A stretch of DNA of 64,000 bases, taken from an uncultured delta proteobacterium. GTDB lineage: Bacteria; Myxococcota; UBA727; VGSZ01. The stretch is taken from the NCBI GenBank assembly GCA_963775425.1, contig CAVZJB010000009.1:272616-336615 (forward strand), in the 5' to 3' direction. The translations under genes were made by a program, and so were the position numbers. The notes under the pieces were generated by a model. The model was not told where the DNA came from. It did no database searches and worked only from the letters and a program-made list of their open reading frames with translations. Below, in pieces: positions 33,758-63,711 of the stretch. Each line of letters begins with the position of its first letter. Positions within the stretch are counted from its first letter, which is position 1.

Positions 33758-33802
33758 CCTTGATCACAGCGGCGTGCCCGACGACGACGGCGGCGCGGCG
33801 GA

Positions 33803-40560: not shown

Positions 40561-41922
40561 ATGAGCAACACGTCGCTGCCCCCCACGTTCCTCGCCGAGA
40601 CCACCGCGCGCCTGCGGGCCGCCAACGAGCCCGTCACCCGTCGCTTCGTCGGCGAGAGCGCCTCACGCCAGCCGGTGCACACGGTCTACGGCGGGGCGCA
40701 GCTCTTCAAGAAGGACGCGGCGTGGAAGCTCGGCCGCGGCGCGCTCAAGGCGCTCGACGAGTACGCGCCCTCGGCGGACGTGTTCGCGCGCGCCGCGGGC
40801 ATCCGCGCCGACGTCGCCGGCGTCGTGTACGAGCGCGTGCGCGAGAAGCTCGTGCGCGAGCCCGTCGAGGACATGCGCATCGACTTCGAGGACGGCTACG
40901 GCAACCGCCCCGACGACGAAGAAGACGCCGAGGCGGTGCGCTGCGCGCACGAGGTGGCCGCCGGCATGAAGGATCCGCGCGCGCCGGGCAGCGGGCTGCC
41001 GCCGTTCATCGGCATTCGCATCAAGACCTTCTCGGACGAGCTGTTCGCGCGCGCGGTGCGCACCCTCGACCTTTTCGTGAGCGCGCTCGTCAAAGACACC
41101 GGCGGTAAGCTGCCGGACGGCTTCGTCATCACGCAGCCGAAGATCACCACGGCCGAGCACGTCGCCGTCCTCGCCGACGTCCTCGAAGCGCTGGAGGAGC
41201 GCCTCGGCCTGTCGTCGGGGGCGTTGCAGCTCGAGGTGATGATCGAGGCGACGCAGTCCATCCTGGACATCGACGGCAGGATCGCCCTGCCCAGGATCCT
41301 CGACGCCGCGCGCGGCCGCTGCGTGGCCGCGCACTTCGGGACCTACGACTACACCGCGTCCAACAACATCACCGCCGCGTACCAGTCCATGGAGCACGCG
41401 GTCTGCGACTTCGCCCGCACCTTCATGTTGCAGGCGTACGCGGGCACGGGCGTGTGGCTCAGCGACGGAGCCACCAACGTGATGCCGGTGCCGGTGCACC
41501 GCGCGGCCGACGGCCACGCGCTCACCGCCGCGCAGGTCGCCGAGAACGTGTCGGTGGTGCACGCGGCGTGGGCGCTGCACGTGCGCCACATCCGCCACTC
41601 GCTGGAAAACGGCTACTACCAGGGCTGGGACCTCCACCCCGCGCAGCTCCCCACGCGCTACGGCGCGCTCTACGCGTTCTTCCTCGAGGCGCTCCCCGCG
41701 GCGAGCGAGCGCCTGAAGAACTTCGTGCAGAAGGCCGCGCAGGCCACGCTCGTGGGCGACGTCTTCGACGACGCCGCCACGGGCCAGGGCCTGTTGAACT
41801 TCTTCCTGCGCGGCATCAACTGCGGCGCCCTCAAGGAGGACGAGGCCCTCGCCACGGGCCTCACCCTCGACGAGCTGCGCGGCCGCAGCTTCGTCAAGAT
41901 CTTGAAGAACCGTCGGGGTTGA
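40561..41922 (+). CDS. HpcH/HpaI aldolase - citrate lyase beta (CitE)-like family protein
   Basis: ATG at 40561. GYYQGWDLHPAQL resembles the CitE/malyl-CoA lyase G..GK..IHP.Q motif. Confidence 0.5.
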   Translation: MSNTSLPPTFLAETTARLRAANEPVTRRFVGESASRQPVHTVYGGAQLFKKDAAWKLGRGALKALDEYAPSADVFARAAGIRADVAGVVYERVREKLVREPVEDMRIDFEDGYGNRPDDEEDAEAVRCAHEVAAGMKDPRAPGSGLPPFIGIRIKTFSDELFARAVRTLDLFVSALVKDTGGKLPDGFVITQPKITTAEHVAVLADVLEALEERLGLSSGALQLEVMIEATQSILDIDGRIALPRILDAARGRCVAAHFGTYDYTASNNITAAYQSMEHAVCDFARTFMLQAYAGTGVWLSDGATNVMPVPVHRAADGHALTAAQVAENVSVVHAAWALHVRHIRHSLENGYYQGWDLHPAQLPTRYGALYAFFLEALPAASERLKNFVQKAAQATLVGDVFDDAATGQGLLNFFLRGINCGALKEDEALATGLTLDELRGRSFVKILKNRRG

Positions 41923-41932
41923 AGGCAGCGGC

Positions 41933-42943
41933 ATGCCCGTCGCCAATCCGGTCCAGTTCGCCGTGGTGCGCGAGGATCCCGTCGTCGAGCTCTCGCTCCT
42001 CGCGGACGTCCGGCGCGGCGCTTCGACCGCGGCGCTGCTCATCGCCTCGGGCGGCTGCACGGCGCTCACGGTCGCGGCGGCGCGCCCCGACGTGGCGCTC
42101 ACGCTGCTCGATGCGAACCCCGCCCAGCTCGCCCTCGTCGAGCGAAAGCGCGCCGCGCTCGCCGCGCACGCGCCGGGGTCGGCCGCGCGGCGGCGCACCT
42201 TCGGCGTCGACGCGGACGACGCGGCGTCCCTGTCGGGGTGCGGCAACTTCGAGTCGCTGTTTCGCGGGCTGCGCGCCGTGCTCGATGACCTGGTGATGCC
42301 GGCGGCCGAGCGGCGCGCGCTCCTCGCGGGCGACGGCGGCGCGGGCGCGCTCACCGGCAACAGGTACTGGCCGGTGGCGTTCGAGATGTTCTTCTCCGAC
42401 GCCATGCTCGAGGCCATGTTCGGGCCCGAGGCCACGCAGCACGCGGACAAGGGCTCGTACCCGGCGTACTTCCGCCGCGTCGTCGAGCGCGCCCTCGCCG
42501 GCGGCGCGGGGGGAGCGCCGGCGCGCGCGAACCCGTATCTTCACCACGTGTTGCTCGGCCACTACCTCGACGGCGCTCTGCCGGCGTTCCTGGAGCGCAT
42601 GACATGCGCGCAGGCGGAGGGCGCGCGCTTCAATCTCGTCGAGGGGAGCGTGACGCGGGGGCCGTCCTTCTCGGCGTTCGACCTCGTGTCGCTGTCGAAC
42701 CTCTTCGACTGGATGAGCGACGACGACGTGGCCGCGACGTGCGCGCGCCTCGCCGCCGAGTCCAAGCCCGGCGCCGTCGTGGTCTTGCGCCAGCTCAACA
42801 ACCGCGCTCCGGTCGAGCGCTTCTTCGGCGACGCGTTCCGCTTCGACGACGCACGCGCCGCGGCGCTCCTCGCCCGCGACCGCAGCATGTTCTACGAGCG
42901 CCTCGTGGTCGGCACGCGGGTCGCCGGCGGGGGTGGCGCATGA
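41933..42943 (+). CDS. DUF3419 (BtaA-like) family protein
   Basis: IASGGCTAL...DANPAQLALVERK resembles the DUF3419 signature. Confidence 0.45.
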   Translation: MPVANPVQFAVVREDPVVELSLLADVRRGASTAALLIASGGCTALTVAAARPDVALTLLDANPAQLALVERKRAALAAHAPGSAARRRTFGVDADDAASLSGCGNFESLFRGLRAVLDDLVMPAAERRALLAGDGGAGALTGNRYWPVAFEMFFSDAMLEAMFGPEATQHADKGSYPAYFRRVVERALAGGAGGAPARANPYLHHVLLGHYLDGALPAFLERMTCAQAEGARFNLVEGSVTRGPSFSAFDLVSLSNLFDWMSDDDVAATCARLAAESKPGAVVVLRQLNNRAPVERFFGDAFRFDDARAAALLARDRSMFYERLVVGTRVAGGGGA

Positions 42944-43689
42944 GCGCGGCGGCGCCCCCGGAGAGCGCGGGTCGCTCGGCTGCCTCGCCGGAGCTCGTGC
43001 GGCTCATCGACGACGTGCTCGCCGACGTCGACTACGCCGAGAACCCCTACTTCACCGCGCTGCGCGACGGGAGCTTTTCGCGCGAGGACTTCCTCGAGAC
43101 GCAGCTCCAATTCCACGCGGCGGTGACGTTCTTCTCGCGGCCCATGGCGGCGCTGGCGGCCAAGATCCCGTCCGCGGAGCTGCGCGTGGAGATCGTGCGC
43201 AACGTGTGGGAGGAGCACGGCGAGGGCGATCCCGCGCGCATGCACGGCGCCACCTTCGTCGAGCTCCTGGCGCGCCTCACCGGCGGCGCCGCCGACGAGG
43301 TGCGGCGGGAGATCGAGCGCCGCCCCCTCTGGCCGGAGGTGCGCGCGTTCAACACCCTCCTCGCCGGCGTCTGCGTGCTCGACGAGTACCTCGTGGGCGT
43401 CGGCTGTATGGGCATCGTCGAGCGGATGTTCGCCGAGATCTCCGGCTGGATCGGAAACGCCATCGTCGCCCGCGGGTTCCTGCCCGCCGACCGGATGATC
43501 CACTACAGCCTTCACGAGTCCCTCGACGTCAAGCACGCGTCCGACTTCTTCGCCGTGCTCGACGCCGCCTGGGGCGCCGCCGACGAGCGCTACCGCATCG
43601 AGCAAGGCCTGCGCATGGGCGCCATCGCGTTCGACCAGCTCTACGCGCGCCTGTACCGCTGCCGCGACCGCCGCTGGGTGCGCCCGTGA
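42940..43689 (+). CDS. Iron-containing redox enzyme family protein (heme-oxygenase-like di-iron, CADD/PqqC-like)
   Basis: ATG at 42940 overlaps the previous stop (ATGA). The NVWEEHGEGDPARMH motif is typical of heme-oxygenase-like di-iron enzymes. Confidence 0.55.
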   Translation: MSAAAPPESAGRSAASPELVRLIDDVLADVDYAENPYFTALRDGSFSREDFLETQLQFHAAVTFFSRPMAALAAKIPSAELRVEIVRNVWEEHGEGDPARMHGATFVELLARLTGGAADEVRREIERRPLWPEVRAFNTLLAGVCVLDEYLVGVGCMGIVERMFAEISGWIGNAIVARGFLPADRMIHYSLHESLDVKHASDFFAVLDAAWGAADERYRIEQGLRMGAIAFDQLYARLYRCRDRRWVRP

Positions 43690-44846
43690 CGCGCCCGCGT
43701 CGTCGACCGCGCGCGGGGCGCCCGCCCACGGGCCGGTGGGCCGCCGCGCCCGTCACCGCCCTCGTCCTCGCCGTCACCGGCGCGCTCGCGGGCTGCCCCG
43801 CGCCGGCGAGCGAGGATCCGTTCGAGCTCGTCATCGCCGCCAAGAAGGCGGCCGCCGACGTGCGCGCCGACGGCGCCCGCGTCGCCTACACCGACGGCCT
43901 GGAGGCGAGCAGCGACGGCCAGGGGGTCGGGGTCGACGTCGTCGTCGCCGAGCGCGGCGAGGAGATCCTGCGCGCGCCGGCCGACGTCGCCGTGCGCGGG
44001 ATGGCGCTCGGCAAGACCTCCGTGGCCACGCTCGAGCTCGCCGAGGCCGCCGCCGTCAATCAGCACGTGGTCATCCGTCCCCTCGACGGCGGCGACGCCA
44101 TCGATGTCCCTCGCACGGACGCGCCCCTCGCCCTCGCCGCCGTCGACGACGGCGCCGGCTACCTCTGGATCGAAGCGCGCCTCGACGGCACCGACGACAC
44201 CGGCGGCGGCGTCGACGGCCTCTATGTGCTCACGCTCGTCGAGGCCGGCGAGGACGGTGTGGTGACCAGGCGCACGCCCTTCGACGCCGGAGAGATCCGC
44301 GCCCCCGCCGCCGTCCTCGAGCTGTTCCCGCGCCCCTTCGGCGTGCTCGTCGCCGGTGACGACGTCTACTTCGGCTGGGACTCCGACCTCTGCCGCGGCG
44401 GCTCCGTGCTCTACCGCGTGAGCCGCGCCGACGGCCACGGCGTCGCGGAGTGGCGCGGGCGCGTCGCCGCCGTCGGCCCCGTCGACGGCACGACGTGCGA
44501 GTGCGACACCACCGTCGCCGACAACGTCACGGACCGCGGCCAGGCCGTCGCGCTGGACGCGGGGACACCGGTGGTGGTGGGCGGTGTCTTCGACTGCGCC
44601 TCCGTGAGCGCGGAGCGCGGCTTCGTGCGTGACGGCGAGGACAGCGCCGAGGTCGAAGACGCGCTCCGCTTCGCGGGCTTCTCGTCGAGCGGCGTCACGG
44701 CCACCACGCCCACGGGAGTGGTGAAGCTCGTCGGCGTCGGCGAGGGCGCCGTCGTGAACGCCCACTCGCGCGTGACCGGCCTCGCGGTGGACGGCGGCGA
44801 CGTGTTCTTCAGCCTCGAGGACGGCGTCTACCGCCTCACGCCGTGA
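43686..44846 (+). CDS. Hypothetical lipoprotein
   Basis: GTG start overlaps the previous stop (GTGA). Signal peptide with lipobox LAGC. Confidence 0.45.
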   Translation: MTRPRRRPRAGRPPTGRWAAAPVTALVLAVTGALAGCPAPASEDPFELVIAAKKAAADVRADGARVAYTDGLEASSDGQGVGVDVVVAERGEEILRAPADVAVRGMALGKTSVATLELAEAAAVNQHVVIRPLDGGDAIDVPRTDAPLALAAVDDGAGYLWIEARLDGTDDTGGGVDGLYVLTLVEAGEDGVVTRRTPFDAGEIRAPAAVLELFPRPFGVLVAGDDVYFGWDSDLCRGGSVLYRVSRADGHGVAEWRGRVAAVGPVDGTTCECDTTVADNVTDRGQAVALDAGTPVVVGGVFDCASVSAERGFVRDGEDSAEVEDALRFAGFSSSGVTATTPTGVVKLVGVGEGAVVNAHSRVTGLAVDGGDVFFSLEDGVYRLTP

Positions 44847-44906
44847 CGCGGCGGTCCGGCCGCCGTTGACCGCGAGCGCCCGGCGCGGTCTCACTGCACC
44901 CAGGGC

Positions 44907-45707
44907 ATGCGCTTCTTCAAGATCACCCGCGAGATCCTGCCGCGCTGGCAGGAGAAGCTCGAGGCGCTCGAGCAACTGAGCGTCTATCCCCTCGGCGCCG
45001 ACGCCTTTCGCCTCACGCACGGCGCGGACTACTTCGCGTTCTTCGAGCGCATGGGCGAGGTCCACTACTACGCGATCGAGGAGGGCGGCGCGCTCGCCGC
45101 GGTCGCTTGCGGCGTGTTGCGGCCGGCGTCGGTGCGGGCGCCGCGTCGCTGGTACGCCGCGGACCTGAAGGTGCACCCGGCCTTTCGTGGGAGACACCTG
45201 CCGATCACGCTGCTCCGCCGCGCGTTCCTCCAAAACTGGCTCCGCTGCGGGCGCGGGTACGCGGTGGCGATGGACCCGTCCGACGGGCGCGTGCCTCCGG
45301 GGGTGCGGCTGATGGCGCACTTCAAGTGGATCCCGATGTCATTGATGGCGCTCGCCAAGATCGACGTCTACGCCGCCGACGAGCACGGGATGAAGCGCGC
45401 CGCGCCGCTCATCGCGCGTGGAGGCGTGCGGCCTCGATACGTATCGCTCGCAGGGGTCAAGGACCTCGTGCTCGAGAGCTCCAAGGCGCCGCTCGATCTT
45501 CTTCACGTGTCGTTTGCGCCCACCGGCGACGACCGGGTCTACGAGGCGCCGCAACGCGGGGCCACGCACATGTGGTGCGTGCCACGTGAGCACGCGCTGG
45601 CCGGCGCGCTCGCCGCCGAGGGCTTCACGCCCACGGCGAGCGCGACGCTCTTGCACCACCGGCTCGCGCGTATGGATTGGGCGACGCTCGAGACCTGCGA
45701 GATCTGA
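44907..45707 (+). CDS. GNAT-like acyltransferase family protein (putative)
   Basis: WYAADLKVHPAFRGRHL resembles the GNAT acyl-CoA binding motif (R/Q-x-x-G-x-G/A). Confidence 0.4.
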   Translation: MRFFKITREILPRWQEKLEALEQLSVYPLGADAFRLTHGADYFAFFERMGEVHYYAIEEGGALAAVACGVLRPASVRAPRRWYAADLKVHPAFRGRHLPITLLRRAFLQNWLRCGRGYAVAMDPSDGRVPPGVRLMAHFKWIPMSLMALAKIDVYAADEHGMKRAAPLIARGGVRPRYVSLAGVKDLVLESSKAPLDLLHVSFAPTGDDRVYEAPQRGATHMWCVPREHALAGALAAEGFTPTASATLLHHRLARMDWATLETCEI

Positions 45708-45709
45708 AC

Positions 45710-47662
45710 GTGTGCGGCATCGTCGCCGTCCTGCGCCTCGGCGAGCGTCCGCTGCCCGGGGACGACGCGGTACGCGCGATGACCCGAGCCATCGCTCACC
45801 GCGGCCCCGACGGCGAAGGCTTCCATCGCGACGACGACGTCGCGCTCGGCGTGGTGCGGCTGGCGGTCGTCGACGTCGGGCACGGGCGGCAGCCGGCGCG
45901 CGGCTGCCGCGGCGCCGGGCCCGTGTCCGTCGTGAACGGCGAGCTCTACGAGCACCGCCCGCTGCGCGCGGAGCTCGCCGCGCGGCACGAGATCGTCGAC
46001 GCGTGCGACGCCACGCTGCTGCCGCATTTGTACGAGGACCACGGCGCCAACATGGTGCTGCACATGCACGGCATGTTCGCCTTTGCGCTGTGGGACCGGC
46101 GCGAGCGCACGCTGCTCCTCGGCCGCGACCGCCTCGGCATCAAACCGCTCTTCTTCGCCGTCACGCCCGACTTCCTCGTTGCTGCGTCGGAGGCAAAGGC
46201 GATCTTCGCCTCCGGCCTCGTCCAGCCGCGCATCGATCGCGACGCCGTCGACGACCTCTTCTCCCTGGGGTACCCGTGCCCGCCGCGCACGATGTTCGCC
46301 GGCGTCACTGCGGTGCCCCCGGGGCACACGGTGACGGCTCGCGCGGGCGGCGGCGCACAGCGAGGCCGCGTCGACGCCGCTCGCCGCTACTGGCGCGCGC
46401 CGCTGTCTCCGCCGGCGCACACCGGCCAACGAGGGTCGCCCGCGGGGTCGGCCGCCGACGTCCACGACGCCCTCGCCGCCGCCTTGCGCACGCACCTCGA
46501 CGCCGACGTCCCCGTGGCCACGTGGCTGTCCGGAGGGCTCGACTCGTCCGCGGTCTCGGCGCTCGCGCGCGAGGCCGCCGGCGCGCCGCTCCCCGCGTTC
46601 GCGCTCACGTTCCCGGGAGACCCCGAGGGGCTCGACGAGAGCGCACCCGCGCGCGCCGTCGCCCGCTTCCTCGGCGCGGACCTGGACGAGGTGCCCATGG
46701 GAGCTCCGGCGGCTTCGTTGCTCGAGCGCATGACGTGGCACCTCGAGCTCCCGCTCCTCGTCCCCGGCGCGCTCGGCGGCCTCCTGCTCTCCGAGCGGCA
46801 GCGCGCGCGAGGCTTCAAGGTCACGCTCACCGGCGACGGTGCCGATGAGGTGCTCGGCGGCTACGACGTGTTTCGCGCGAGCCGCGCGCGCCGGCTCCTC
46901 GGGGCGCGCGCGTTCTCCGCCGCCGTCGTCGCGGGCGACGCGCTCGGCCTCCTCTCGCCGCGCGGCATCGGTGCGTTCCTCGCGCAAAACGCCCGCGCGC
47001 CACGGACGGACATCGTCGCCCGCGCGTACGGCGGCGTGCGCCCACCCTGGCTCGAGCAGTGGGCGCTCCTCGACGTCGAGCGCGCGGCGCTCCTGTCGCC
47101 CGACGGCAGGCGCGTGCGCCCGATCGAAGAGGCGCCCGCGGGCTTCGCCGCTTTGGTGCGCGAGGACGCCGTCGCGCTCGATCCGCTCGACGCCGAGATC
47201 GCGCTGGAGCTGGAGACGCGCCTGCCCGCGTGGATCCTGGTCATCGGTGATCGCTCATCGATGGCCCACGGGGTCGAGGCCCGCTTGCCGTTCCTCGACG
47301 ACGACGTCGTGCGCACGCTCCTCGCCGTCCGGCCGGCGCTGAAGATGCGCGGGATGCGCGAGAAGGCCGTGCTGCGCGACGCCGTCGCGGGGCTGCTGCC
47401 GCGCGCCATCGTGCGGCGCAGGAAGCAGCCGTTCATGACGCCGATCGCGCCGTGGTTCTTCCCGCCGGGAGCTACGCCGCCCGCCCTGACGCGCGCGCGG
47501 CTCGAGGACGCCGGGCTGTTCGACGCCGCCGTCGTCGCGCGGCTCCTCACGCGTCTGCACACCTCGCGCCCCGGGACGCTCGAGCGCGTCCGGCTGGAGA
47601 TGGTGCTGATGCTCGTCCTCGGGACGCAGCTCCTGCACGCGTCTTTCGTGGCCAGGGCTTAG
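45710..47662 (+). CDS. Asparagine synthetase (glutamine-hydrolysing) family amidotransferase / amide- or beta-lactam-synthetase-like
   Basis: GTG start followed by Cys2 (MCGIVAV), as in Ntn glutaminases. PP-loop WLSGGLDSS. ~650 aa. Confidence 0.8.
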   Translation: MCGIVAVLRLGERPLPGDDAVRAMTRAIAHRGPDGEGFHRDDDVALGVVRLAVVDVGHGRQPARGCRGAGPVSVVNGELYEHRPLRAELAARHEIVDACDATLLPHLYEDHGANMVLHMHGMFAFALWDRRERTLLLGRDRLGIKPLFFAVTPDFLVAASEAKAIFASGLVQPRIDRDAVDDLFSLGYPCPPRTMFAGVTAVPPGHTVTARAGGGAQRGRVDAARRYWRAPLSPPAHTGQRGSPAGSAADVHDALAAALRTHLDADVPVATWLSGGLDSSAVSALAREAAGAPLPAFALTFPGDPEGLDESAPARAVARFLGADLDEVPMGAPAASLLERMTWHLELPLLVPGALGGLLLSERQRARGFKVTLTGDGADEVLGGYDVFRASRARRLLGARAFSAAVVAGDALGLLSPRGIGAFLAQNARAPRTDIVARAYGGVRPPWLEQWALLDVERAALLSPDGRRVRPIEEAPAGFAALVREDAVALDPLDAEIALELETRLPAWILVIGDRSSMAHGVEARLPFLDDDVVRTLLAVRPALKMRGMREKAVLRDAVAGLLPRAIVRRRKQPFMTPIAPWFFPPGATPPALTRARLEDAGLFDAAVVARLLTRLHTSRPGTLERVRLEMVLMLVLGTQLLHASFVARA

Positions 47663-47829
47663 GGCCCCCGAATGAACAACTCGATCGCCCTCGCGGCCGA
47701 TCCATCGCCGCTGGCTTCGTTGCTCGTCGGTCACGTGGCGACGGCCACGCTCCCTCCTCGCGCCTCGCCATCGGCGCGCCTCGACCGCGATCATCGACCG
47801 ACTTGTTCATTCGAGGGCCCTTAGCCCTC
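47653..47829. mobile_element. MITE-like palindromic element: ~34-bp imperfect terminal inverted repeats (GGGCCCCCGAATGAACAA / TTGTTCATTCGAGGGCCC) flanking ~100 bp, bounded by TTAG on both sides, lying exactly between two convergent TAG stops
   Basis: Seen in sequence: left arm 47653-47686, right arm 47789-47829; ~30 of 34 positions are complementary. Confidence 0.45.
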
Positions 47830-50800
47830 TAGATCGCGTCGGCCGCGCCGACGTCGGCCTGCGGGGCGGCGGCGAGGGAGCGCGGACGCGCGGGGCGCTT
47901 GTCGACGACCTCGTCGATGAGGCCCGTGATGCACGTGGCCATGCGCTCGATGTTCTCGCTCCGAAACAGCTCGAGGTGCGAGCCCTTCACCGTGACGACG
48001 TCGATGCGACCCTTGACCCAGCGGCGCCAGCCGTTGGTGGGATCGTCCATGCGCGTGGCCGGCCAGCGGAAGGGATGCTCGGCGACAAAGAGCAGGAGCG
48101 GCGCCGTCTCTCCGTTCTGTTTGGGCATGTACGCGAGCTGGGCCTGCGTGAGGATGGCCCAGATCTGCTTCATGCGATCTTCGCGCTCACGGTCGGCGCC
48201 GTCGACGGCGGGCGCGAGCAGCTCGCCGAGGCCGAGCTTGAAGAGCAAGCGGCGGCGCACGTTGTCGATGCGATCCTTCACGTAGTTGAAGCGGCCCAAG
48301 GCGTCACGCCTGCGCAGCTCCTCGACATGCGCGAGCGCGCGCTCCATGCGCGGAAGCTTCTCGGGATAGCCGGGCGCGAAGGCGTCGAACGCGACGATGG
48401 CGCCGACGTTCTTCCCGCGCCGGCGCAGCCGGTGCGCGAGCTCGTAGGCGACCATGGCCCCGAAGCTGTAGCCGCCGACGACGAGCTGCTGCCCCGACAG
48501 CCCGCGCGCGTCGAGCTCGCGCTCGTAGGCCGCGGCGATCTCCTCGACCGACTCGCGTGGCAGGTCTTCGCCGTCGGCGCCGATGGCGGTGAAGGCGTAG
48601 ACGGGTTGATCGGGCCCGAGCCGCTGCGCGAGCTCGCGAAAGATGAACACCTGGCCGCCCGCGCCGGACACGATGAGCAGCGGCGGGCGCGTCCCGTGCG
48701 CGTTCAACACGACGAGGTGGCTCTGCGGCTCGGACGTCGCGCGCTCGCCGTCGCCGAGGCTCTGCGCGAGCGCGGCGATGGTGGGCTTCGCCAGGATGCG
48801 CGACAGCGGGACGTTGATGCCCAGCTCCTTCTTCAGCCGCGACACCACCACGACCGCGAGCAGCGAGTGGCCGCCCATGTCGTCGAAGAAGTCGTCGTGA
48901 ACACCCACCGGCGCGCGCAAGACGTCGCTCCACAGGGCGACGAGCTTCTCCTCGAGCGGGGTGCGCGGTGGGGACAGCGCGCGCCGCTCGAGGACGAGCG
49001 CCGGATCAGGGAGCGCCGCGCGGTCGAGCTTGCCGTTGGAGGTGACCGGCAGGCGGTCGAGCCGCACCAGGGCCGAAGGCACCATGAAGTCCGGCAGCGC
49101 CGCAGCCACCGCCGCCTTCAACGACGGCGCGTCGAAGGGCTGCGCCGCATGGAGCGGCACGACGTACGCCACCACGGCCTTCGCGCCGGAGGCGTCGGGG
49201 CGCGCGACGCACACGACGTCGCGCACGCCGGGCTGCTTGCGCAGCACGGCTTCGATCTCGCCGAGCTCGACGCGGAAGCCGCGCACCTTCACCTGGAAGT
49301 CGGCGCGCCCGAGGAACTCCATGGTGCCGTCGTCCCAGAAGCGCGCGAGGTCGCCCGTCTTGTAGATGCGCTCGCCCGGGAGGAACGGATCGGGGAGGAA
49401 CCGCTCGGCGGTGAGCTCCTCGCGGTTGAGGTAGCCGTCGGCGAGGCAGAGGCCGCCGATGTAGAGGTCGCCGGCGATGCCGGTGGGCGCCGGGCGCATG
49501 TGGCGATCGAGGATGTAGTAGCGGGCGTTGTCGATGGGACGGCCGTAGGGGATGGAGCGCCACGACGGGTCTACGTGGCCGATGCGGTGGAAGTTCGACC
49601 AGATGGCGGCCTCGGTGGCGCCGCCGAACGACACGGGTTCCACACCCTCGAACACCTCGCGCAGGTGGTCGGGCAGCTTGACCGGGATCCAGTCGCCGGA
49701 CATGAGCGCGAGCCGCAGCGTCGACGACGGCGCGCGCGCCGGAAAGAACGGCGCGAGCCGCGCCAGCGCCGGCGGCGCGGAGTCCCAGATGGTGATGCCG
49801 GGCGCGGTGAGCTTCTTCACCAGGAGCTCCGGCTCGCGCAGCGTCTCCACCGAAGCGATCTCGACGACGGCGCCGGCGCCGAGCGCGCCGAAGACGTCGT
49901 AGACGGACAGGTCGAAGCTCGGGGACGTGACGAACAAGAGCTTGTCGCGCGGGCCGACGCTGAAGGTGCGGTTCACCCACTGCAGCGTGTTCGTCACCGC
50001 GCGGTGCGTGAGCACCACGCCCTTGGGCCTGCCGGTGCTGCCCGACGTGTAGATGGCGTAGCTCACGTCCCTCGAGGCGGCGACGCGCGCGGGCCGGGTG
50101 TCGGGAGCGCCCTGCACGTCCGCGCCGTCGACGCCCAGGATGGGGATGCCCGGCGGCGGCGCGCCGTCGCCGTGGCCCCACGGCAGCGACGACGACGTCA
50201 CCACCGCCACCGCTCGCGCGTCTTCGACCATGAAGCGCGCGCGCTCTTCGGGGTAGCCCGGGTCCACGGGCACATATGCCGCACCGGACTTGGCGATGCC
50301 GATCATCGTGGTGACGAGGTCGAAGTTGCGGTCGAGCAGGAACGCCACGTATTGGCCGGGCTTCACCCCGCGGGCGCGCAGCGCGTGGGCGAGGCGGTTG
50401 GCGCGCCGCTCCACCTCGGCGAAGGTGAGCGTCTCTCCCTCGAATTCCAGGGCGACGTCGTCAGGCCGCGCGTCCACCTGCTCCTCGAAGAGCGTGTGGA
50501 TGAGGATCTCGTCTGAAAACGGCGCGGCCGTGTCGTTCCAGCCGAAGACCTGCCGCTTGCGGGTCTCGTCGTCGAGGAGGTCGACGCGCGCGAGGGGCTT
50601 TTCGGGATCCGCCGCGACCTGCGCGCACACCGCGGAGATCTGCTCCACCAGCGCGCGCACGCGGGGCGTGTCGACCGCGCCTTCGTCGACGACGAGCGAC
50701 GCCTGTCCGCCGCTCAGGCGCAGCGCCAGGACCGCGCCCGGCGGGAGGGCCTCGCCGTCGTCGAGCAGGACGGCCACGCACGACAGCGCGCTCGTCTGGA

Positions 50801-52202
50801 GCGCGCGGCTGGGGGAGAGCACAGGGGTACGCGCGACGAGGTCGACGAGGTAGCCGCCGCGGCGGCGGAGCTCGTCGAGGTCCTTTCGCACCGCGCGCAC
50901 CAGCTCCGCGAAGCCGCGCCCCGCGTCCAGGCCGACGAACAACGGGACGGTGGGCGCCAACAAGGCCGAGGCGGCTTCGAAGCGCTTGCGCACGGGGCCG
51001 TCTACGAGGGCGACGCACAGCTCGTCGCGGTCGCACAGCGTGGCCATGGCGAAGGAGAACGCGGCGGTGGCTGCGGCCTCGATGTCATCGGCGAAGCGCG
51101 AGCGCAGCTCGGGCAGGGGGAGCGAGTGCACCGACGTTTGTCCCGGCGGCCCCGCCGCCGACAAGAACGGCACCGCCGGCGACTCCGCGCGCGCGAGGCG
51201 CTTGACGAAGAACGGCTCGGCCTCGGCGATCTCGCGGGTGATCGCCGCGCGGCCCTCGCGTCCGGGATCGACGATCTGTCCACCGGGCTTGAGTCCCAGG
51301 TAGTGCAGCGCCTCCTCGACGGAGATCTCGACTCCGCTCAGGAGCGACGTCCGCTCCACGCGCAGCGCCCCCTGGGCGCACGCCACCACGAAGGAGCGGG
51401 CGTCGGCCTCGAGGACGGTGCCCGGGCCCCCGCCCGCGCCGGACACCGACGCCTCACGCACGACCACCGCGCGCTCCCCCGCCGACGTCTTGTGCACGAG
51501 CTTGGCGAGGGCGAAGCGGTTGATGTACGGGCCCCAGTCGCAGGCGCGCACGAGCCGGTCGAGCTCGGCGGCCGTCTGGCTCCAGTCGAGAGTGGCCAGG
51601 GCCGCGGGGCGATCGTGACGCGAGAAGATCAGCCGCTCGCCGCCGGGGTTCGTCCCCTTCGGCTGGGGGATGCCCGGCGGCGCGCCGTGCTCGAGCTTCT
51701 CGACGAGAGACTTGAAGGCGTCGAGCGCGAGCGCGGCGTTCTTGATGTTGAGGGAGACGGAGCTCTCGCGCTCCTCGATGTCGACGTCGCGGCGCTCGAG
51801 GATGTCGCCGGTGTCGATGCCGTCGGCGAGGCGATGCCACACCACGGCGTGCGTGCGCTCGCCGCGCAGGAGCGCCCACGCCGAGCCGTGAATGCCCGCG
51901 TAGCGGGGCAGCGGTCCGTCGTGGAAATTGACGGCGTCGATGCGCGCCTTGGTGAAGTGCTCGGCCTTGAGGATGGCGGGGTACGTGATGGACAAGAGGA
52001 CGTCGATGTCGCCGGCGGCCATGAGCTCACCGATGCGCGCGCGCCCGTAGACCGGCACGTCCTTGCCCCGCGCCCACTCGGCGAGGGCCGGGTTGAGCGT
52101 GACGAGGCCGGCGAGGGCGTGCCCCCGCTCCAGGAGGAGCTCGCCGCACGAGACGGCGAGCGGCTCTTCTCCGAGGACGAGGCAGCGAAGGTGCGCGGGC
52201 AC
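47829..52202 (-). CDS. Non-ribosomal peptide synthetase, single module: formyltransferase-like domain, ~260-aa C-domain-like linker lacking HHxxxDG, adenylation, PCP, thioesterase
   Basis: Fmt-like NFHDGPLPRYAG. A-domain motifs YTSGSTGRPKG, YKTGDL, GRADFQVKVRGFRVELGEIE, NGKLDR. PCP motif DDMGGHSLL. TE motif GYSFG. Confidence 0.9.
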   Translation of the reverse strand: MPAHLRCLVLGEEPLAVSCGELLLERGHALAGLVTLNPALAEWARGKDVPVYGRARIGELMAAGDIDVLLSITYPAILKAEHFTKARIDAVNFHDGPLPRYAGIHGSAWALLRGERTHAVVWHRLADGIDTGDILERRDVDIEERESSVSLNIKNAALALDAFKSLVEKLEHGAPPGIPQPKGTNPGGERLIFSRHDRPAALATLDWSQTAAELDRLVRACDWGPYINRFALAKLVHKTSAGERAVVVREASVSGAGGGPGTVLEADARSFVVACAQGALRVERTSLLSGVEISVEEALHYLGLKPGGQIVDPGREGRAAITREIAEAEPFFVKRLARAESPAVPFLSAAGPPGQTSVHSLPLPELRSRFADDIEAAATAAFSFAMATLCDRDELCVALVDGPVRKRFEAASALLAPTVPLFVGLDAGRGFAELVRAVRKDLDELRRRGGYLVDLVARTPVLSPSRALQTSALSCVAVLLDDGEALPPGAVLALRLSGGQASLVVDEGAVDTPRVRALVEQISAVCAQVAADPEKPLARVDLLDDETRKRQVFGWNDTAAPFSDEILIHTLFEEQVDARPDDVALEFEGETLTFAEVERRANRLAHALRARGVKPGQYVAFLLDRNFDLVTTMIGIAKSGAAYVPVDPGYPEERARFMVEDARAVAVVTSSSLPWGHGDGAPPPGIPILGVDGADVQGAPDTRPARVAASRDVSYAIYTSGSTGRPKGVVLTHRAVTNTLQWVNRTFSVGPRDKLLFVTSPSFDLSVYDVFGALGAGAVVEIASVETLREPELLVKKLTAPGITIWDSAPPALARLAPFFPARAPSSTLRLALMSGDWIPVKLPDHLREVFEGVEPVSFGGATEAAIWSNFHRIGHVDPSWRSIPYGRPIDNARYYILDRHMRPAPTGIAGDLYIGGLCLADGYLNREELTAERFLPDPFLPGERIYKTGDLARFWDDGTMEFLGRADFQVKVRGFRVELGEIEAVLRKQPGVRDVVCVARPDASGAKAVVAYVVPLHAAQPFDAPSLKAAVAAALPDFMVPSALVRLDRLPVTSNGKLDRAALPDPALVLERRALSPPRTPLEEKLVALWSDVLRAPVGVHDDFFDDMGGHSLLAVVVVSRLKKELGINVPLSRILAKPTIAALAQSLGDGERATSEPQSHLVVLNAHGTRPPLLIVSGAGGQVFIFRELAQRLGPDQPVYAFTAIGADGEDLPRESVEEIAAAYERELDARGLSGQQLVVGGYSFGAMVAYELAHRLRRRGKNVGAIVAFDAFAPGYPEKLPRMERALAHVEELRRRDALGRFNYVKDRIDNVRRRLLFKLGLGELLAPAVDGADREREDRMKQIWAILTQAQLAYMPKQNGETAPLLLFVAEHPFRWPATRMDDPTNGWRRWVKGRIDVVTVKGSHLELFRSENIERMATCITGLIDEVVDKRPARPRSLAAAPQADVGAADAI

Positions 52203-52237
52203 GTCGTCGGATTATCACGACCTGCGGCGCCCGCGCA

Positions 52238-54094
52238 TTATCGGTAGCCACGTGCCTGCAGATCGAACATCTCGGCGTAACGACCGCGCTTGCTCATGAG
52301 CGTGTCGTGCGTGCCGCGCTCGACGACCCGGCCCCTCTCGAGCACGACAATCTGATCTGCCGTGCGCACCGTGGAGAACCTGTGCGAAATCACGATGCCG
52401 ATTCGCCCGCGCAACAGACCGCGCAGCTCGGCGAAGATTTCTGCCTCCGCGGCCGGGTCGAGGTTCGCCGTGGGCTCGTCGAGGACCCACACGTCGGCGT
52501 CGCGGTAGATGAGGCGTGCGAGCGCGAGGCGTTGCCATTGGCCCCCGCTCAAGTCGTGCCCTCCCTCGAACAAGCGGCCGACGACGGACCCCAGTCCGTG
52601 CCCGATCTCGTCGACGATGCCGTCCGCGCGCGCGGACGCGAGCGCGCGTTCCGCCCGCTCCCGGTCGAACGGCAAGGAGATCCGGCCGAAGCGCAAGACG
52701 TCCTGCACCTCGAGCTCGTAGGCGCCGTAGTCTTGGAACAGCACCCCGATCCTGTCGCGCAGGCGCTCGGGGTCGGCGGCGCGCGCGTCGACGGCGACGT
52801 CGACGCCGTCGACGGGGCCCGAGAAGACGATCCGCCCCTCGTCGGGATCGAAGAAGCGGCACAGGAGCTTCACCAGGGTGCTCTTGCCGGCGCCGTTTTC
52901 GCCCACCAGCGCGAGGATCTCGCCGGCGCGCACCTCGAGGTCGACGCCGGCGAGCGCGCCCCGCTCCTCGTCGTGGCCCGGGTACCGGAACGACACGTTC
53001 TCGAGCGCCACCCGCGTGATGCGCTCGGGGAGGGCCTTCGCGACGGCCGGGGCGCGAACGGTGGGCTCGATGGCGAGGAAGCTGAAGTAGTCGTCGATGA
53101 ACTGCGCGTGCTCGTCGACGGTGACCAGCGAGCCGAGCGTGGCGCCGAGGTTGCTCGTCAGGGCGGTGAAGGCGCCGAAGATCGCGGCGACGTCGCCGAT
53201 GCTGAGGGTGCCGCGGGTGCCGGCGCCGGCGATGAAGATGTAGGCGACCAACAAGAGCGAGGCGGAGCCGGCGCCGCCGAGGAGGTCGAGGACGTTGGCG
53301 TCGCGGTAGAGCCGCCGCTTTTGCTCGAGCCGATCGAGCGACATGGCCTTGGCCCGGTCGACCACGTGCTGCGCCAGGCCGAACGCGCGCACGTCCTTGG
53401 CGAAGTGCGGCTCCGACGCCACCTGCACCATGTAGTCGTGCTCGCGCTCGCGGCGGGTGGTGCGCCAGAAGAGCTCGTAGAAGCGGCGGTTGGTGCGGAG
53501 CTTCATCAACGCCACCGGCAGCACGGAGAGCACGCCGAGGGGGACGAGCCGCGCGTCCAGGACGAACAGCGCGGAGCACAGGGTGACGAGCGTGATCGTC
53601 GACGAGAAGATGTGGATGAGCGTGAGCGTGAGGTTGTACGGGCGCCAGCCCACGTCGGCGCGGGCGCGCTGCAGCCTGTCGTGCCACGCGGGGTCGTCGA
53701 GGAGCGCGAGGTCGGCGGTGGCGACGTGCAGGAGGAACTTCTTGTGGGCGGACATCCAGACGCGGTCGGAGAACACGTCGTGGACGCGCCCGGTGAACGC
53801 CTGCAGCGATTGATTGAGGACGGCGAGGCCGCCGAGCGCGAGCACCGGGAAGAGCACCCGGTGATCCCGCCACGACGACGGGTGCGCCGCGATGCCGTCG
53901 ATGAGCCTGCCCGTGGCGAGGAGCGTCAGCGGCGTCAGCACGGCGCTCACCACGGTGAGCGCGAGGACGGTGCCCATCTGCCGCGGCGCCGCCTCCCAGG
54001 CGAGCGCCAGCGTGGCGCGCACGTTCCGCCAGATGCGCGCGGGTCGCGGCAGCATCTTGCGCACGGGCGGCGTCTCCTGGGCAGGCGCGGTCAT
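52238..54094 (-). CDS. ABC transporter, fused permease/ATP-binding exporter
   Basis: Six TM segments followed by Walker A GENGAGKST, signature LSGGQWQRLALAR and Walker B VWVLDEPT. ATG at 54092-54094. Confidence 0.8.
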   Translation of the reverse strand: MTAPAQETPPVRKMLPRPARIWRNVRATLALAWEAAPRQMGTVLALTVVSAVLTPLTLLATGRLIDGIAAHPSSWRDHRVLFPVLALGGLAVLNQSLQAFTGRVHDVFSDRVWMSAHKKFLLHVATADLALLDDPAWHDRLQRARADVGWRPYNLTLTLIHIFSSTITLVTLCSALFVLDARLVPLGVLSVLPVALMKLRTNRRFYELFWRTTRREREHDYMVQVASEPHFAKDVRAFGLAQHVVDRAKAMSLDRLEQKRRLYRDANVLDLLGGAGSASLLLVAYIFIAGAGTRGTLSIGDVAAIFGAFTALTSNLGATLGSLVTVDEHAQFIDDYFSFLAIEPTVRAPAVAKALPERITRVALENVSFRYPGHDEERGALAGVDLEVRAGEILALVGENGAGKSTLVKLLCRFFDPDEGRIVFSGPVDGVDVAVDARAADPERLRDRIGVLFQDYGAYELEVQDVLRFGRISLPFDRERAERALASARADGIVDEIGHGLGSVVGRLFEGGHDLSGGQWQRLALARLIYRDADVWVLDEPTANLDPAAEAEIFAELRGLLRGRIGIVISHRFSTVRTADQIVVLERGRVVERGTHDTLMSKRGRYAEMFDLQARGYR

Positions 54095-55056
54095 CAATAT
54101 CCCGCGGCGACGTCGACCACGCCGAGGAGCGGCTCCCGCGCGGCGTAGCGGCGGACGTTGTCGCGCACGCGCTCCTTCAGGAGCGGCACCGCCATCTCGG
54201 GCGTGTTCCCGACGTGCGGCGTGATGACGCAGCGCTCGCTGCGCCACAGGGGGTGATCCTCCGGGAGCGGCTCGGGATCGGTGACGTCGAGCGCGGCGCC
54301 GCCGATGACGCCGCGCGCGAGCGCGTCGACGAGGGCGCCGGTGTCGACGAGGGCGCCGCGCGCGACGTTCACGAGCCAGGCGTGCCGGGGCATGCACGCG
54401 AGCTCCGCGGCGCCGATCATCCCCCGCGTCTCCGGCGTCAGCGCCGCGGCGAGGAACACGACGTCCGCCCCGGCGAACGCCTCGCGCCGCGCTTCGAACG
54501 TCACCGTCCGCACCAGACCGTCGCCGCCGGCGAACGGGACGCTCCGGCGCCTGACGACGGTGAGCGCGCAGCGAAACGGCGCCAGCAGCGCGACCAGGCT
54601 CCGGGCGATGCCGCCGGCGCCGACGATGACGACCTTCCCGCCGAGGAGCGAGAGCCCATCCGCGGGCCCGCCGTTCGGCCGCACCCAGGAGCGCGCGAGC
54701 GCGCGTGCCTTCAGGTTGCGCAGCCCGGCGAGCGCCAGGGCGAGCGCGTGCTCGGCGACGGGGGCGGCGTACACGCCCTGTCCCGCGGTGAAGCGGTGGT
54801 TGTCGTCGAGGACGCTGAGGAACGGCTCGATGCCCGCCCACGGCAACTGCACCCAGCGGATGTTGTCGTGCAGATCGAGGAGGGCGCGCAGGTCGGCGGC
54901 CCCCGTCGAGCTCGCCCAGACGAGACCCTCGGCGTCCTCGGGGGAAGCGAGCGCGGCGCCGCCTTCGACGACGGCGTCCTCGAGGAACGGGCGCACGCCC
55001 TTCGGCGCCACGCAGACCTTCAGCGCGCTCACGGCGCCGATGATGCACGGCGCCAC
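54094..55056 (-). CDS. D-isomer-specific 2-hydroxyacid dehydrogenase family protein (NAD-binding)
   Basis: GxGxxG motif VGAGGIARS. Motifs GAALDVTDPEP and ITPH. Confidence 0.7.
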   Translation of the reverse strand: MAPCIIGAVSALKVCVAPKGVRPFLEDAVVEGGAALASPEDAEGLVWASSTGAADLRALLDLHDNIRWVQLPWAGIEPFLSVLDDNHRFTAGQGVYAAPVAEHALALALAGLRNLKARALARSWVRPNGGPADGLSLLGGKVVIVGAGGIARSLVALLAPFRCALTVVRRRSVPFAGGDGLVRTVTFEARREAFAGADVVFLAAALTPETRGMIGAAELACMPRHAWLVNVARGALVDTGALVDALARGVIGGAALDVTDPEPLPEDHPLWRSERCVITPHVGNTPEMAVPLLKERVRDNVRRYAAREPLLGVVDVAAGY

Positions 55057-55138
55057 CGGCCGCGGGAAGCGCGGAAGCGAAAGCGCGCCCCACGGGGGGC
55101 GCGCGCAGATCAGCGACCGGAGGGAGCGGCCGCGCAGA

Positions 55139-59989: not shown

Positions 59990-60366
59990 GGTTGCGGTCG
60001 CCCGGCGCGCGCGACCGCCTCTTCGAACGCCTCGGCGATCGGGTTGAAGGTGCGACGCGCGTCGTCGAGGGCGGCGCGGTCGCCGCGCAACGAGACGTAG
60101 AGCCGGGTGAGAACGAAGCCGTAGACGTCGTCGAGCATGGTGCACAGCTCGGGGGCCTTCGACGGATCGAGCGTGGACCGGAGCTCGTGCACGATGTCGA
60201 TGGCCTTGCGCACCGGCGTCGCCGCCTGCGCGGCGCGACCGAGGGCGAGCTCGCCGTCGGCGAGGAACATCTGCTTGCGCGCACCCGCGAGCAAGAGGAG
60301 CAGCACGCGCTCCTTCGACGCAGTGGCCGTCTGAGTTTCTTGATAGCGCGCCGACGGCAACATCAC
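59986..60366 (-). CDS. fliS: Flagellar export chaperone FliS
   Basis: YQETQTATASKERVLLLLLAGA...IVHELRSTLD pattern typical of FliS. 126 aa. Confidence 0.75.
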   Translation of the reverse strand: MMLPSARYQETQTATASKERVLLLLLAGARKQMFLADGELALGRAAQAATPVRKAIDIVHELRSTLDPSKAPELCTMLDDVYGFVLTRLYVSLRGDRAALDDARRTFNPIAEAFEEAVARAGRPQP

Positions 60367-61700: not shown

Positions 61701-61778
61701 GGCGCTCTCCAAGAGGGGTGAACGAGGACGAAGCCGCCGCACGGATCACCCGGGTCCGTGCGGCGGCTTCAGGAGCGC

Positions 61779-63708: not shown

Positions 63709-63711
63709 GGG

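Follow-up and report, generated by a model that had tools for sequence, protein, structure and literature searches.

Probable composite organisation of a candidate biosynthetic locus with a formyltransferase–NRPS and an oxygenase cassette in a Polyangia-like myxobacterial genome

Results and Discussion

The 14.5 kb region analysed here lies within a 64 000 nt stretch of DNA from an uncultured delta proteobacterium (the window). It is probably a composite locus, in which a purine-breakdown gene, a three-enzyme cassette and the operon of a nonribosomal peptide synthetase (NRPS) stand side by side, rather than a single pathway. This reading is carried by gene content, domain folds, motif conservation, synteny and missing co-conservation, all of which were read directly. 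An initial annotation had recognised no characterised pathway in the region, and literature searches gave no matching pathway either.

Gene organisation

The nine genes (g1–g9) of the initial annotation are present where it had placed them, each with a strong coding signal (GC3 0.90–0.95), and its gene and domain calls were borne out by Pfam and NCBIfam profile searches of the nine proteins. The order on the plus strand had to be corrected: the operon had been listed as beginning with the AsnB gene, which is in fact the last (g6), the first being a DUF6986 gene (g1). The order is DUF6986, DUF3419, heme-oxygenase-like di-metal oxidase/oxygenase (HDO), lipoprotein, GNAT and AsnB, with successive intergenic gaps of 10, −4, −4, 60 and 2 nt. 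On the minus strand, g9 and g8 overlap by 1 nt, and g8 and g7 are spaced by 35 nt. This spacing supports two convergent transcription units (g1–g6, plus strand; g9-g8-g7, minus strand), and the packing is tight enough that g1–g6 may form one transcript. The convergent gap, from the g6 stop to the g7 stop, is filled by an inverted-repeat element of 175 bp (47654..47828, no strand assigned) that occurs as a single copy in the window. Its arms of 34 nt are 88% complementary, its folding energy is −101 kcal/mol (z=−6.6), and it probably either terminates transcription in both directions or is the scar of an insertion. A GC hairpin with a T-rich tail (55083..55104, minus strand), terminator-like by pattern scan only, lies upstream of g9, between g9-g8-g7 and a cytochrome-c-peroxidase-like gene.

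Backbone genes and the inserted block

g1 (40561..41922, plus strand) encodes a DUF6986 TIM-barrel enzyme (Pfam DUF6986, E=3e-180) with additional weak malate-synthase/HpcH similarity, previously described as CitE-like. It has more than 8000 homologues (62–84% identical), some of which are named "phosphoenolpyruvate kinase" by NCBI. DUF6986 adjoins SCO1/urate oxidase/allantoinase/allantoicase in the relatives L168, L171 and L172, and in L170, from another phylum, it is flanked by xanthine dehydrogenase and uricase. Because purine-catabolism genes lie beside DUF6986 in every relative examined, g1 was assigned to a purine-catabolism backbone; it stands outside the inserted block described below.

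g9 (54094..55056, minus strand) encodes a D-2-hydroxyacid (glyoxylate/hydroxypyruvate reductase-like) dehydrogenase (DH; 2-Hacid_dh_C, E=3e-43). Orthologues with 68% identity are found in L168, in which NRPS and ABC genes are both absent, and in L172, in which both are present. g9 belongs to the backbone and is the first gene of the DH-ABC-NRPS transcription unit.

The order in L168 is SCO1-urate oxidase-allantoinase-allantoicase, DUF6986 and DH-CCP-GT2, with no gene between DUF6986 and DH, the stop codons of which abut. Blastn synteny with this close relative breaks at window positions 41918/54110. The 12.2 kb block g2–g8 (41923..54093, no strand assigned) is missing there and, relative to this one genome, has been inserted where two backbone genes converge. 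Synteny with L172 breaks at 41918/47937, and the g2–g6 part is missing; in L172–L174, DUF6986 is followed by NRPS(C-A-T-TE)-ABC-DH-GT2. L172, which has ABC and NRPS but neither cassette nor AsnB, stands at an intermediate stage; the block was therefore put together in two or more steps. Inserted as a single contiguous stretch compared with L168, g2–g8 may have been acquired jointly and be functionally coupled in the source genome.

The DUF3419-HDO-GNAT cassette

The first cassette gene, g2 (41933..42943, plus strand), encodes a short DUF3419 (BtaA-family) protein (Pfam DUF3419, 75 bits) with a class I SAM-binding fold and motif. In the family alignment (A4), S39, G40, G41 and C42 (the SGGC stretch) are invariant, and a search of solved structures returned no relative. 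Pfam family and SAM-binding motif are common to g2 and BtaA (S-adenosylmethionine:diacylglycerol 3-amino-3-carboxypropyltransferase), but g2 is shorter, is always part of an HDO-GNAT cassette and has no recurrent neighbouring BtaB-like methyltransferase gene.

The HDO g3 (42940..43689, plus strand; PF14518, Haem_oxygenas_2, 63 bits), the second cassette gene, has 989 homologues (59–77% identical) in several phyla, including Legionella. E/H/D positions are invariant in the alignment, among them H192, D196 and H199. Its nearest solved structures are HrmI (2e-8), CADD-type pABA synthases (1e-6 to 1e-4) and BesC (3e-3). PF14518 and the His/carboxylate positions are thus shared with HrmI/BelK, CADD and BesC, and the single-domain build of about 240 aa with CADD; the matches are, however, distant (E 1e-8 to 3e-3), and the CADD family model gives a score of 19.9 against a cutoff of 200. 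In contrast to the known HDOs, g3 forms a highly conserved subfamily of its own that is always paired with DUF3419 and GNAT, a pairing that to our knowledge occurs in no known HDO pathway.

g5 (44907..45707, plus strand), the third cassette gene, has a weak GNAT match, and its C-terminal half is an uncharacterised region. Acetyltransf_1 was matched in 26 of 31 family members, which share 18 invariant residues; there are 529 representatives at 50% identity.

All nine window proteins were searched by tblastn against 86 HDO-containing loci. DUF3419 adjoins the HDO in 75 of these and a g5-like gene directly follows it on the 3′ side in 63, the partners being always adjacent and collinear where present; most loci without DUF3419 or GNAT are short or break off at the cassette. 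Fusion proteins of the types HDO+GNAT and HDO+DUF3419+GNAT also exist. The GC content of the loci ranges from 31 to 73%. Neither DUF6986 nor DH was detected in any of the 86 loci, the search for NRPS gave only three weak adenylating-enzyme matches (22–26%), and AsnB and ABC were found nowhere except in L004/L005 (an AsnB orthologue and a weak ABC ATPase match of about 31%). No other neighbour family recurred at the cassette loci beyond three near-identical ones, and 136 flanking ORFs match 117 different Pfam families. These distributions argue for g2/g3/g5 being a rigid, autonomous three-enzyme cassette that is widespread in bacteria.

The cassette chemistry as a whole is proposed from the enzyme families. 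A common amine or amino-acid metabolite would be alkylated by the DUF3419 transferase with SAM (transfer of methyl or 3-amino-3-carboxypropyl), would undergo O2-dependent N-oxygenation or oxidative cleavage by the HDO di-metal oxygenase, and would be N-acylated by the GNAT acyltransferase. The product is probably an N-oxygenated, acylated amine.

Two further genes accompany the cassette. g4 (43686..44846, plus strand), a lineage-specific lipoprotein gene whose translation has a signal peptide and the lipobox L-A-G-C, has no family match in Pfam or NCBIfam, and no homologue was found by tblastn in the 86 loci; in the source genome it is inserted inside the cassette. g6 (45710..47662, plus strand), which encodes an AsnB-type glutamine-dependent amidotransferase (TIGR01536, score 375, cutoff 267), is appended to it. 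The protein starts with Met-Cys (Cys2), carries the SGGLDS motif of the PP-loop and, like asparagine synthetase B, passes the model for glutamine-hydrolysing asparagine synthases; it falls below the cutoffs of the XrtA-associated (PEP-CTERM), lasso-cyclase and macrolactam-cyclase subfamilies. The β-lactam-forming role suggested earlier is unlikely because the glutaminase Cys is kept and the asparagine-synthase model is passed; by score, g6 is a bona fide glutamine-hydrolysing enzyme of that type. Only two close relatives were found (57% identity), both in Polyangiaceae MAGs, where they lie about 5 kb (within about 6 kb) from a cassette in another operon. This nearness in both other genomes with AsnB could reflect a real link.

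The NRPS operon

g7 (47829..52202, minus strand) encodes the single-module NRPS (Pfam Formyl_trans_N, Formyl_trans_C, AMP-binding, PP-binding, Thioesterase). The F, A, T and TE domains of the initial annotation are all present, but a half condensation domain between F and A had been missed. Residues 1–310 (51273..52202, minus strand) form an Fmt/ArnA-type formyltransferase didomain (N and C subdomains), the Asn-His-Asp triad of which is invariant across the family. They are followed by some 245 aa with a condensation-domain fold, a vestigial C-terminal lobe (residues ~315–560; 50523..51260, minus strand) from which the HHxxxDG motif is absent, and by A, T (GGHSL) and type I TE (GYSFG) domains (residues 572–1422; 47937..50489, minus strand). 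The A-domain code, extracted by motif and alignment, is DLYDLSFIWK (DLYDMSLIWK in orthologues), and among solved structures the best match in a single stretch is to the Cys-activating A domain of BmdB (bacillamide). The code appears Cys-like; the substrate call is soft, because Asp at code position 278 departs from the canonical Cys code, which has no Asp there.

The LgrA initiation module of linear gramicidin synthetase (F-A-T) likewise joins a formyltransferase-family domain in cis, at its N-terminus, to an A-T pair and has the Asn-His-Asp positions in common with g7; by analogy, the same N-formylation of the T-bound amino acid would be expected. The two F domains resemble each other marginally in sequence (E about 0.01). 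Unlike LgrA, g7 has as its F unit a complete Fmt/ArnA-type didomain that includes a C-terminal OB-like subdomain, the half condensation domain separates F from A, and the module directly ends in TE, so that there is no elongation. EntF-type C-A-T-TE modules and the syntenic orthologues of L171 and L172, with the same ABC and DH partners, share the C-terminal C-domain lobe with g7. The A-T-TE part of g7 is 50% (L172) and 68.6% (L171) identical to these relatives' enzymes, which carry HHLAVDG, whereas in g7 the lobe bearing HHxxxDG is exchanged for the formyltransferase. g7 probably descends from a C-A-T-TE enzyme, and folate-dependent formylation presumably replaces N-acylation from an upstream carrier-bound donor.

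g8 (52238..54094, minus strand) is an MsbA-like ABC exporter (TMD-NBD half transporter; Pfam and NCBIfam) with a 65% identical orthologue at the same position in L172. Co-transcription of NRPS, ABC and dehydrogenase genes, as first proposed, is plausible, since L172 has the same DH-ABC-NRPS order and the same 1 nt DH/ABC overlap. Among the few long-contig relatives sampled, with L172–L174 being variants of one organism, g9-g8-g7 thus looks like a lineage-conserved operon, the NRPS of which is C-A-T-TE in the relatives.

For substrate, formyl transfer and release we infer the following course. The A domain would charge the T domain with a small Cys-like amino acid, and the F domain would N-formylate this amino acid from N10-formyl-tetrahydrofolate, with the remaining C-domain half acting as a structural spacer. 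The TE would free the N-formyl-aminoacid, most simply by hydrolysis, for export by g8. The product is likely an exported N-formyl, cysteine-like amino acid.

Alternative readings

The initial annotation had taken g1–g9 as one NRPS-centred cluster, the product of which would be a small derivative of an amino acid that is N-formylated, N-oxygenated or amidated. Physical contiguity in two tightly packed convergent operons and a chemically compatible enzyme set speak for it. The co-conservation test proposed with it was run and found that the parts are not co-conserved, and the one-cluster reading therefore fails: DUF6986 and the dehydrogenase occur without the rest, the cassette stands beside an NRPS in 0 of 86 loci, and the NRPS operon occurs without cassette or AsnB in L172–L174. 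We regard it as highly improbable. A recent hybrid pathway confined to g2–g8, in which cassette and AsnB tailor or feed the N-formyl-Cys-like product, is unlikely to a lesser degree. It might yield a thiohydroxamate or hydroxamate-type metallophore by a logic analogous to that of fluopsin C, whose pathway uses HDOs and a methyltransferase on cysteine. The contiguity of the block absent from L168, an HDO and a SAM-fold enzyme adjoining a Cys-like A domain, and the exporter would suit such a pathway, but the stepwise assembly seen through L172, the autonomy of the cassette elsewhere and the convergent arrangement of the two parts around a strong hairpin argue against it.

Two readings concern single parts of the locus. 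The loss of the HHxxxDG half, together with a folate-binding motif (HDGPLPRYAG) that differs from the canonical HxSLLP...RG, could mark g7 as a decaying or inactive remnant with a non-catalytic formyltransferase fusion. This is hardly probable given an intact ORF of 1457 codons (GC3 0.94), complete A, T and TE core motifs, a confident model, and an F-halfC-A architecture with the NFHDGPLP signature that is shared by 12 proteins of Myxococcota and Rhodobacterales. The cassette might instead make a betaine lipid or amino-lipid, with the BtaA-like DUF3419 protein adding 3-amino-3-carboxypropyl to a lipid whose headgroup is then oxidised and N-acylated. The betaine-lipid literature does place DUF3419 in the BtaA family, and a GNAT N-acyltransferase and, in the source genome, a lipoprotein are at hand; we nevertheless consider this quite improbable. 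No separate BtaB-like methyltransferase gene was seen beside the cassette in the 86 loci, and no methyltransferase family recurs among the neighbours. Cassette DUF3419 proteins of about 320–336 aa match the Pfam model of 385 positions in two distinct stretches, read as absence of part of the middle, and Pfam scans of g2, g3 and g5, which report domains and not membrane segments, returned soluble-enzyme domains only.

Implications for the source genome

Under the composite reading, variable DNA would have piled up in this Polyangia-like Myxococcota genome between the convergent backbone genes for DUF6986 (g1) and the 2-hydroxyacid dehydrogenase (g9). The cassette, the inserted g4 and the appended g6 would all be read from the DUF6986 promoter; since g1–g6 are tightly packed, DUF6986 and AsnB may therefore share regulation with the cassette in the source genome.

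Gene content and layout of the region

Because the GC content of the window is about 72%, genes were selected by third-position GC, frame plots, and reading of the ORFs. Nine genes fill the region 40561–55056, the limits being exactly those of the initial annotation, and every domain named there was confirmed with Pfam and NCBIfam. The gene order it gave was wrong. The plus strand actually carries g1 (DUF6986, 40561–41922), g2 (DUF3419, 41933–42943), g3 (Haem_oxygenas_2, 42940–43689; a heme-oxygenase-like di-metal oxidase/oxygenase, HDO), g4 (a lipoprotein without family, 43686–44846), g5 (GNAT-like, 44907–45707), and g6 (AsnB, 45710–47662). The minus strand carries g7 (NRPS, 47829–52202), g8 (ABC exporter, 52238–54094), and g9 (2-hydroxyacid dehydrogenase, 54094–55056). 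The intergenic gaps (10, −4, −4, 60, and 2 nt on the plus strand; −1 and 35 nt on the minus strand) are compatible with two convergent transcription units.

The gap between the convergent stop codons of g6 and g7 is filled exactly by a 175-bp element (47654–47828) with 34-nt inverted-repeat arms that are 88% complementary. The element occurs once in the window, is predicted to fold much more stably than shuffled sequence (z = −6.6), and could be either a bidirectional terminator or the scar of an insertion that brought in g2–g6. Pattern scans of the region gave a terminator-like hairpin just upstream of g9 and no promoters. Neither tRNA genes nor Rfam elements were found, so there is no integration-site signature or riboswitch, and a search for direct repeats at the borders gave nothing above short matches at chance level.

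The upstream flank carries, on the minus strand, genes for an allantoicase/OHCU decarboxylase, an allantoinase-like amidohydrolase, a membrane urate oxidase, and SCO1. The downstream flank carries a cytochrome-c-peroxidase-like lipoprotein, a family-2 glycosyltransferase, and flagellar genes. The best homologues are consistently from Myxococcota/Polyangiaceae metagenome-assembled genomes (MAGs). A stand-alone AMP-binding enzyme (656 aa, 12436–14406) and a di-haem cytochrome c peroxidase (16162–17763) are encoded further upstream in the window, together with an sbcC-like gene (24057–27683) that lies in DNA of about 80% GC and has a first-codon-position GC of 0.86, extreme even for this genome. 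The genes fliD and two flagellin genes were located at 60363–63711 in a genome with its best matches in Polyangiaceae/Myxococcota; Myxococcota are usually described as non-flagellated gliders.

Co-conservation of the nine genes

The initial annotation had regarded the nine genes as a single NRPS-centred cluster and had named a lack of co-conservation as refuting this view. Co-conservation was examined from three anchors: the HDO (g3), the DUF6986 protein (g1), and synteny. A metagenome scan added 80 HDO loci, and all nine window proteins were run by tblastn against a set of 86 loci. The gene directly upstream of the HDO encodes DUF3419 in 75 of the 86 loci, and the one directly downstream is of the g5 type in 63; most of the loci that lack one or the other are short or stop at the cassette. 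DUF6986, g4, and the dehydrogenase had no match in any of the 86 loci; the NRPS had no close relative, its three weak matches (22–26%) being to adenylating enzymes. Clustering of all neighbouring ORFs in the 31 longest loci revealed no other recurrent neighbour family beyond three near-identical loci. The 136 matching ORFs in the cassette flanks fall into 117 different Pfam families, with a faint amine/amino-acid theme (DAO, aminotransferases, PLP decarboxylase, copper amine oxidase, amidase), and the GC content of the cassette loci ranges from 31 to 73%. The HDO has 989 homologues that are 59–77% identical, from organisms as distant as Legionella; the contexts in Legionella and an uncultured relative consist of DUF3419–HDO with or without a 264-aa gene and have nothing else in common. 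The results from the HDO anchor thus define g2–g3–g5 (DUF3419–HDO–GNAT) as an autonomous, widespread three-gene cassette, which in the window is interrupted by the lineage-specific lipoprotein gene g4.

The remaining genes were placed by comparison with related Myxococcota contigs. In L168, which encodes a DUF6986 protein 83% identical to g1, the DUF6986 stop codon abuts that of the dehydrogenase gene, followed by CCP and GT2 genes; the stretch 41919–54109 of the window has no counterpart there (blastn), and DUF6986 and the dehydrogenase are present without all the other cluster genes. The order in L172–174 (variants of one organism) is DUF6986 followed by NRPS–ABC–dehydrogenase–GT2, without cassette or AsnB. 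These two arrangements identify the dehydrogenase gene as a backbone gene. The ABC exporter and NRPS genes form one variable unit and the cassette with AsnB another. With the cassette occurring without the NRPS in the 86 loci and the NRPS operon without the cassette in L172–174, the two operons are not co-conserved, and the single-cluster reading fails. The locus is a composite; the genes themselves are real. Nothing relevant on a characterised cluster with these domain combinations was found in the literature.

A second block (29081–33808), located between sbcD and the gene for a transthyretin-like HIU hydrolase, is absent from L168, and the matching interval in L171 and L172 is occupied by other genes. 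Two ORFs of the block (29107–30453 and 32894–33763) had no Pfam family. Judging by this block, the neighbourhood suggests a recurrent insertion hot spot.

Assignment of g1 and g6

Close homologues of the DUF6986 protein g1 number more than 8000. Its gene is divergent, in the related Myxococcota contigs L168, L171, and L172, from the same SCO1/urate-oxidase/allantoinase/allantoicase genes that lie beside it in the window, and in a Thermoanaerobaculia MAG (L170) it stands between xanthine dehydrogenase and uricase. This conserved adjacency places g1 in a purine-catabolism neighbourhood. Its weak malate-synthase/HpcH similarity leads us to infer a possible role in glyoxylate handling. Some of the homologues are called "phosphoenolpyruvate kinase" by NCBI, a name that has no obvious agreement with the purine/ureide-catabolism context in two phyla and for which literature searches gave no characterisation.

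For g6, the initial annotation had considered formation of a β-lactam. The protein scores 374.6 bits against the model for glutamine-hydrolysing asparagine synthase (TIGR01536, cutoff 267.1), and its translation contains both MCGIVAV, with the nucleophile Cys, and the PP-loop SGGLDSS. Assignment as a β-lactam synthetase or lasso cyclase was dropped, the scores being below those family cutoffs. As the asparagine synthase model is passed and the glutaminase Cys kept, g6 is more likely an amidotransferase than a β-lactam synthetase. A genome scan gave only two close orthologues, its other matches being mostly distant Firmicutes paralogues. Both are in Polyangiaceae MAGs, the only two of the 86 loci with AsnB and a weak (about 31%) ABC ATPase match; there the orthologous gene lies about 5 kb from a DUF3419–GNAT–HDO cassette, in a different operon and adjoining a polysaccharide deacetylase gene.

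Architecture and proposed reaction of the NRPS g7

The initial annotation described g7 as formyltransferase (F)–A–T–TE; all four domains are present, and one further region, a half C domain, had been missed. The protein has the domains of a type I NRPS module (AMP-binding, E=3e-76; PP-binding; Thioesterase) with the core motifs YTSGSTGRPKG, NGKLDR, GGHSL, and GYSFG, the T-domain Ser and the GxSxG of the TE being intact. L171 and L172 have C–A–T–TE orthologues, that of L172 with HHLAVDG. Identity with g7 is 69% over A–T–TE for the L171 enzyme and 50% from g7 residue 418 onward for the L172 enzyme. The start of these orthologues is replaced in g7 by about 330 residues of formyltransferase.

An AlphaFold2 model of g7 residues 1–562, built on 12 homologues (pLDDT 89.9), was submitted to Foldseek; some 320 residues of it matched Met-tRNA formyltransferase and ArnA (TMt 0.8–0.85), confirming a formyltransferase fold N-terminal to the A domain. 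On the basis of the model and these matches, g7 consists of F (Fmt-type N and C subdomains), a half C domain, and then A–T–TE. Residues Asn92, His94, and Asp130 align with the catalytic residues of Fmt and are invariant in the 12 homologues, which are from Myxococcota and Rhodobacterales. A condensation domain with HHxxxDG and both CAT-like lobes is not present: the motif is absent from g7, and about 240 residues alone align to C domains. The known F domain of LgrA is of marginal similarity (E about 0.01). In LgrA a compact F is fused directly to A, whereas in g7 the two are separated by the Fmt C-terminal subdomain and the half C domain, which is about 245 aa long. The enzyme is an NRPS variant in which an Fmt-type formyltransferase has taken the place of the catalytic lobe of a starter C domain. 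No shared neighbours emerged from the gene contexts of two F-type NRPS homologues (P0001 and P0003). Two Rhodobacterales homologues (P0007 and P0014) have a MupA/Atu3671-type luciferase-like monooxygenase, then the same Fmt-type F domain, and then an A domain, another uncharacterised arrangement for NRPS initiation.

The ten-residue code of the A domain is DLYDLSFIWK (DLYDMSLIWK in the orthologues), 8–9 of 10 residues being identical to what we take to be the Cys codes, DLYN[LM]SLIWK. The best match of g7 to a solved structure over a single stretch is the BmdB bacillamide A domain, presumably Cys-activating. The A domain would load a Cys-like amino acid onto the T domain, where the F domain would N-formylate it with a folate donor, presumably N10-formyl-THF; the TE would then set the N-formylated amino acid free, and g8 would export it.

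The DUF3419–HDO–GNAT cassette

The HDO g3 scores 62.7 bits against PF14518 (gathering score 28.9), and ten positions are invariant in 34 sequences (E53, E91, E92, H93, H102, E161, H188, H192, D196, and H199). Among solved structures, g3 comes nearest to the N-oxygenase HrmI (2e-8), then to CADD-type pABA synthases (1e-6 to 1e-4) and BesC (3e-3). Assignment as a CADD-type pABA synthase was dropped (TIGR04305, 19.9 bits; cutoff 200), and failure at this cutoff marks g3 as a distinct subfamily. A paper on the desiccation protein DtpC concerns a different HDO, in a dtpC–katE operon, and has no bearing on g3.

The g2 protein matches DUF3419 with 75 bits, and the stretch S39–G40–G41–C42, read as a putative SAM-binding loop, is invariant in the DUF3419 proteins of the cassette. 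Sequence and profile searches matched no solved structure for DUF3419. The cassette shares the DUF3419 part with BtaA/BtaB betaine-lipid synthesis but not the BtaB N-methyltransferase partner; no methyltransferase family recurs among its neighbours. Members of the g5 family (529 representatives at 50% identity) combine a GNAT N-terminal half with a C-terminal half of no known type and have 18 invariant residues; sequence and profile searches against solved structures gave marginal GNAT matches only. A single-sequence AlphaFold2 model of g5 (pLDDT 33) was discarded without a fold search.

The g5 family includes predicted fusion proteins: P0392 (874 aa; HDO, DUF3419, and GNAT-like), P0260 (487 aa; HDO and GNAT-like), and P0267 (540 aa; a partial HDO-like region and GNAT-like). 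If they are not gene-calling artefacts, these fusions would be Rosetta-stone evidence for joint action of the cassette enzymes. In the Legionella sp. contig L084 (1584–8736), the DUF3419–HDO pair comes after a gene for a PLP-dependent decarboxylase and before genes for a short-chain dehydrogenase and a copper amine oxidase; no g5-type GNAT gene was found in this locus by tblastn. These neighbours hint at an amine or polyamine substrate. As a working model at the level of family chemistry only, alkyl transfer, N-oxygenation or oxidative cleavage, and N-acylation would take place on a common amine. Literature searches gave no characterisation of DUF6986, of DUF3419 with an HDO, or of PF14518, and the cassette is apparently unstudied so far.

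Implications

The composite locus has two noteworthy components, the formyltransferase-swapped NRPS variant and the DUF3419–HDO–GNAT cassette. For genome mining, it illustrates that genes lying together around an NRPS in a GC-rich genome can be unrelated modules that have piled up at one variable site; in this case, borders set by eye or by rule-based tools would be off by two genes or more, probably by six. For NRPS enzymology, an Fmt/ArnA-type formyltransferase replaces the catalytic C-domain lobe while the other lobe is kept, and this natural domain swap between close relatives (69% identical over A–T–TE) offers a ready comparison for starter-unit exchange. It is a tentative proposal, somewhat short of an even chance, that g2–g3–g5 is a previously unrecognised widespread bacterial three-enzyme pathway that acts as a unit, as its rigid synteny and the predicted fusions indicate, and makes a conserved small metabolite by chemistry new for heme-oxygenase-like di-metal enzymes, captured here with an AsnB amidotransferase beside a formylating single-module NRPS. 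For HDO enzymology, the cassette is a well-defined and widely distributed target, with an HDO unusually conserved across phyla.
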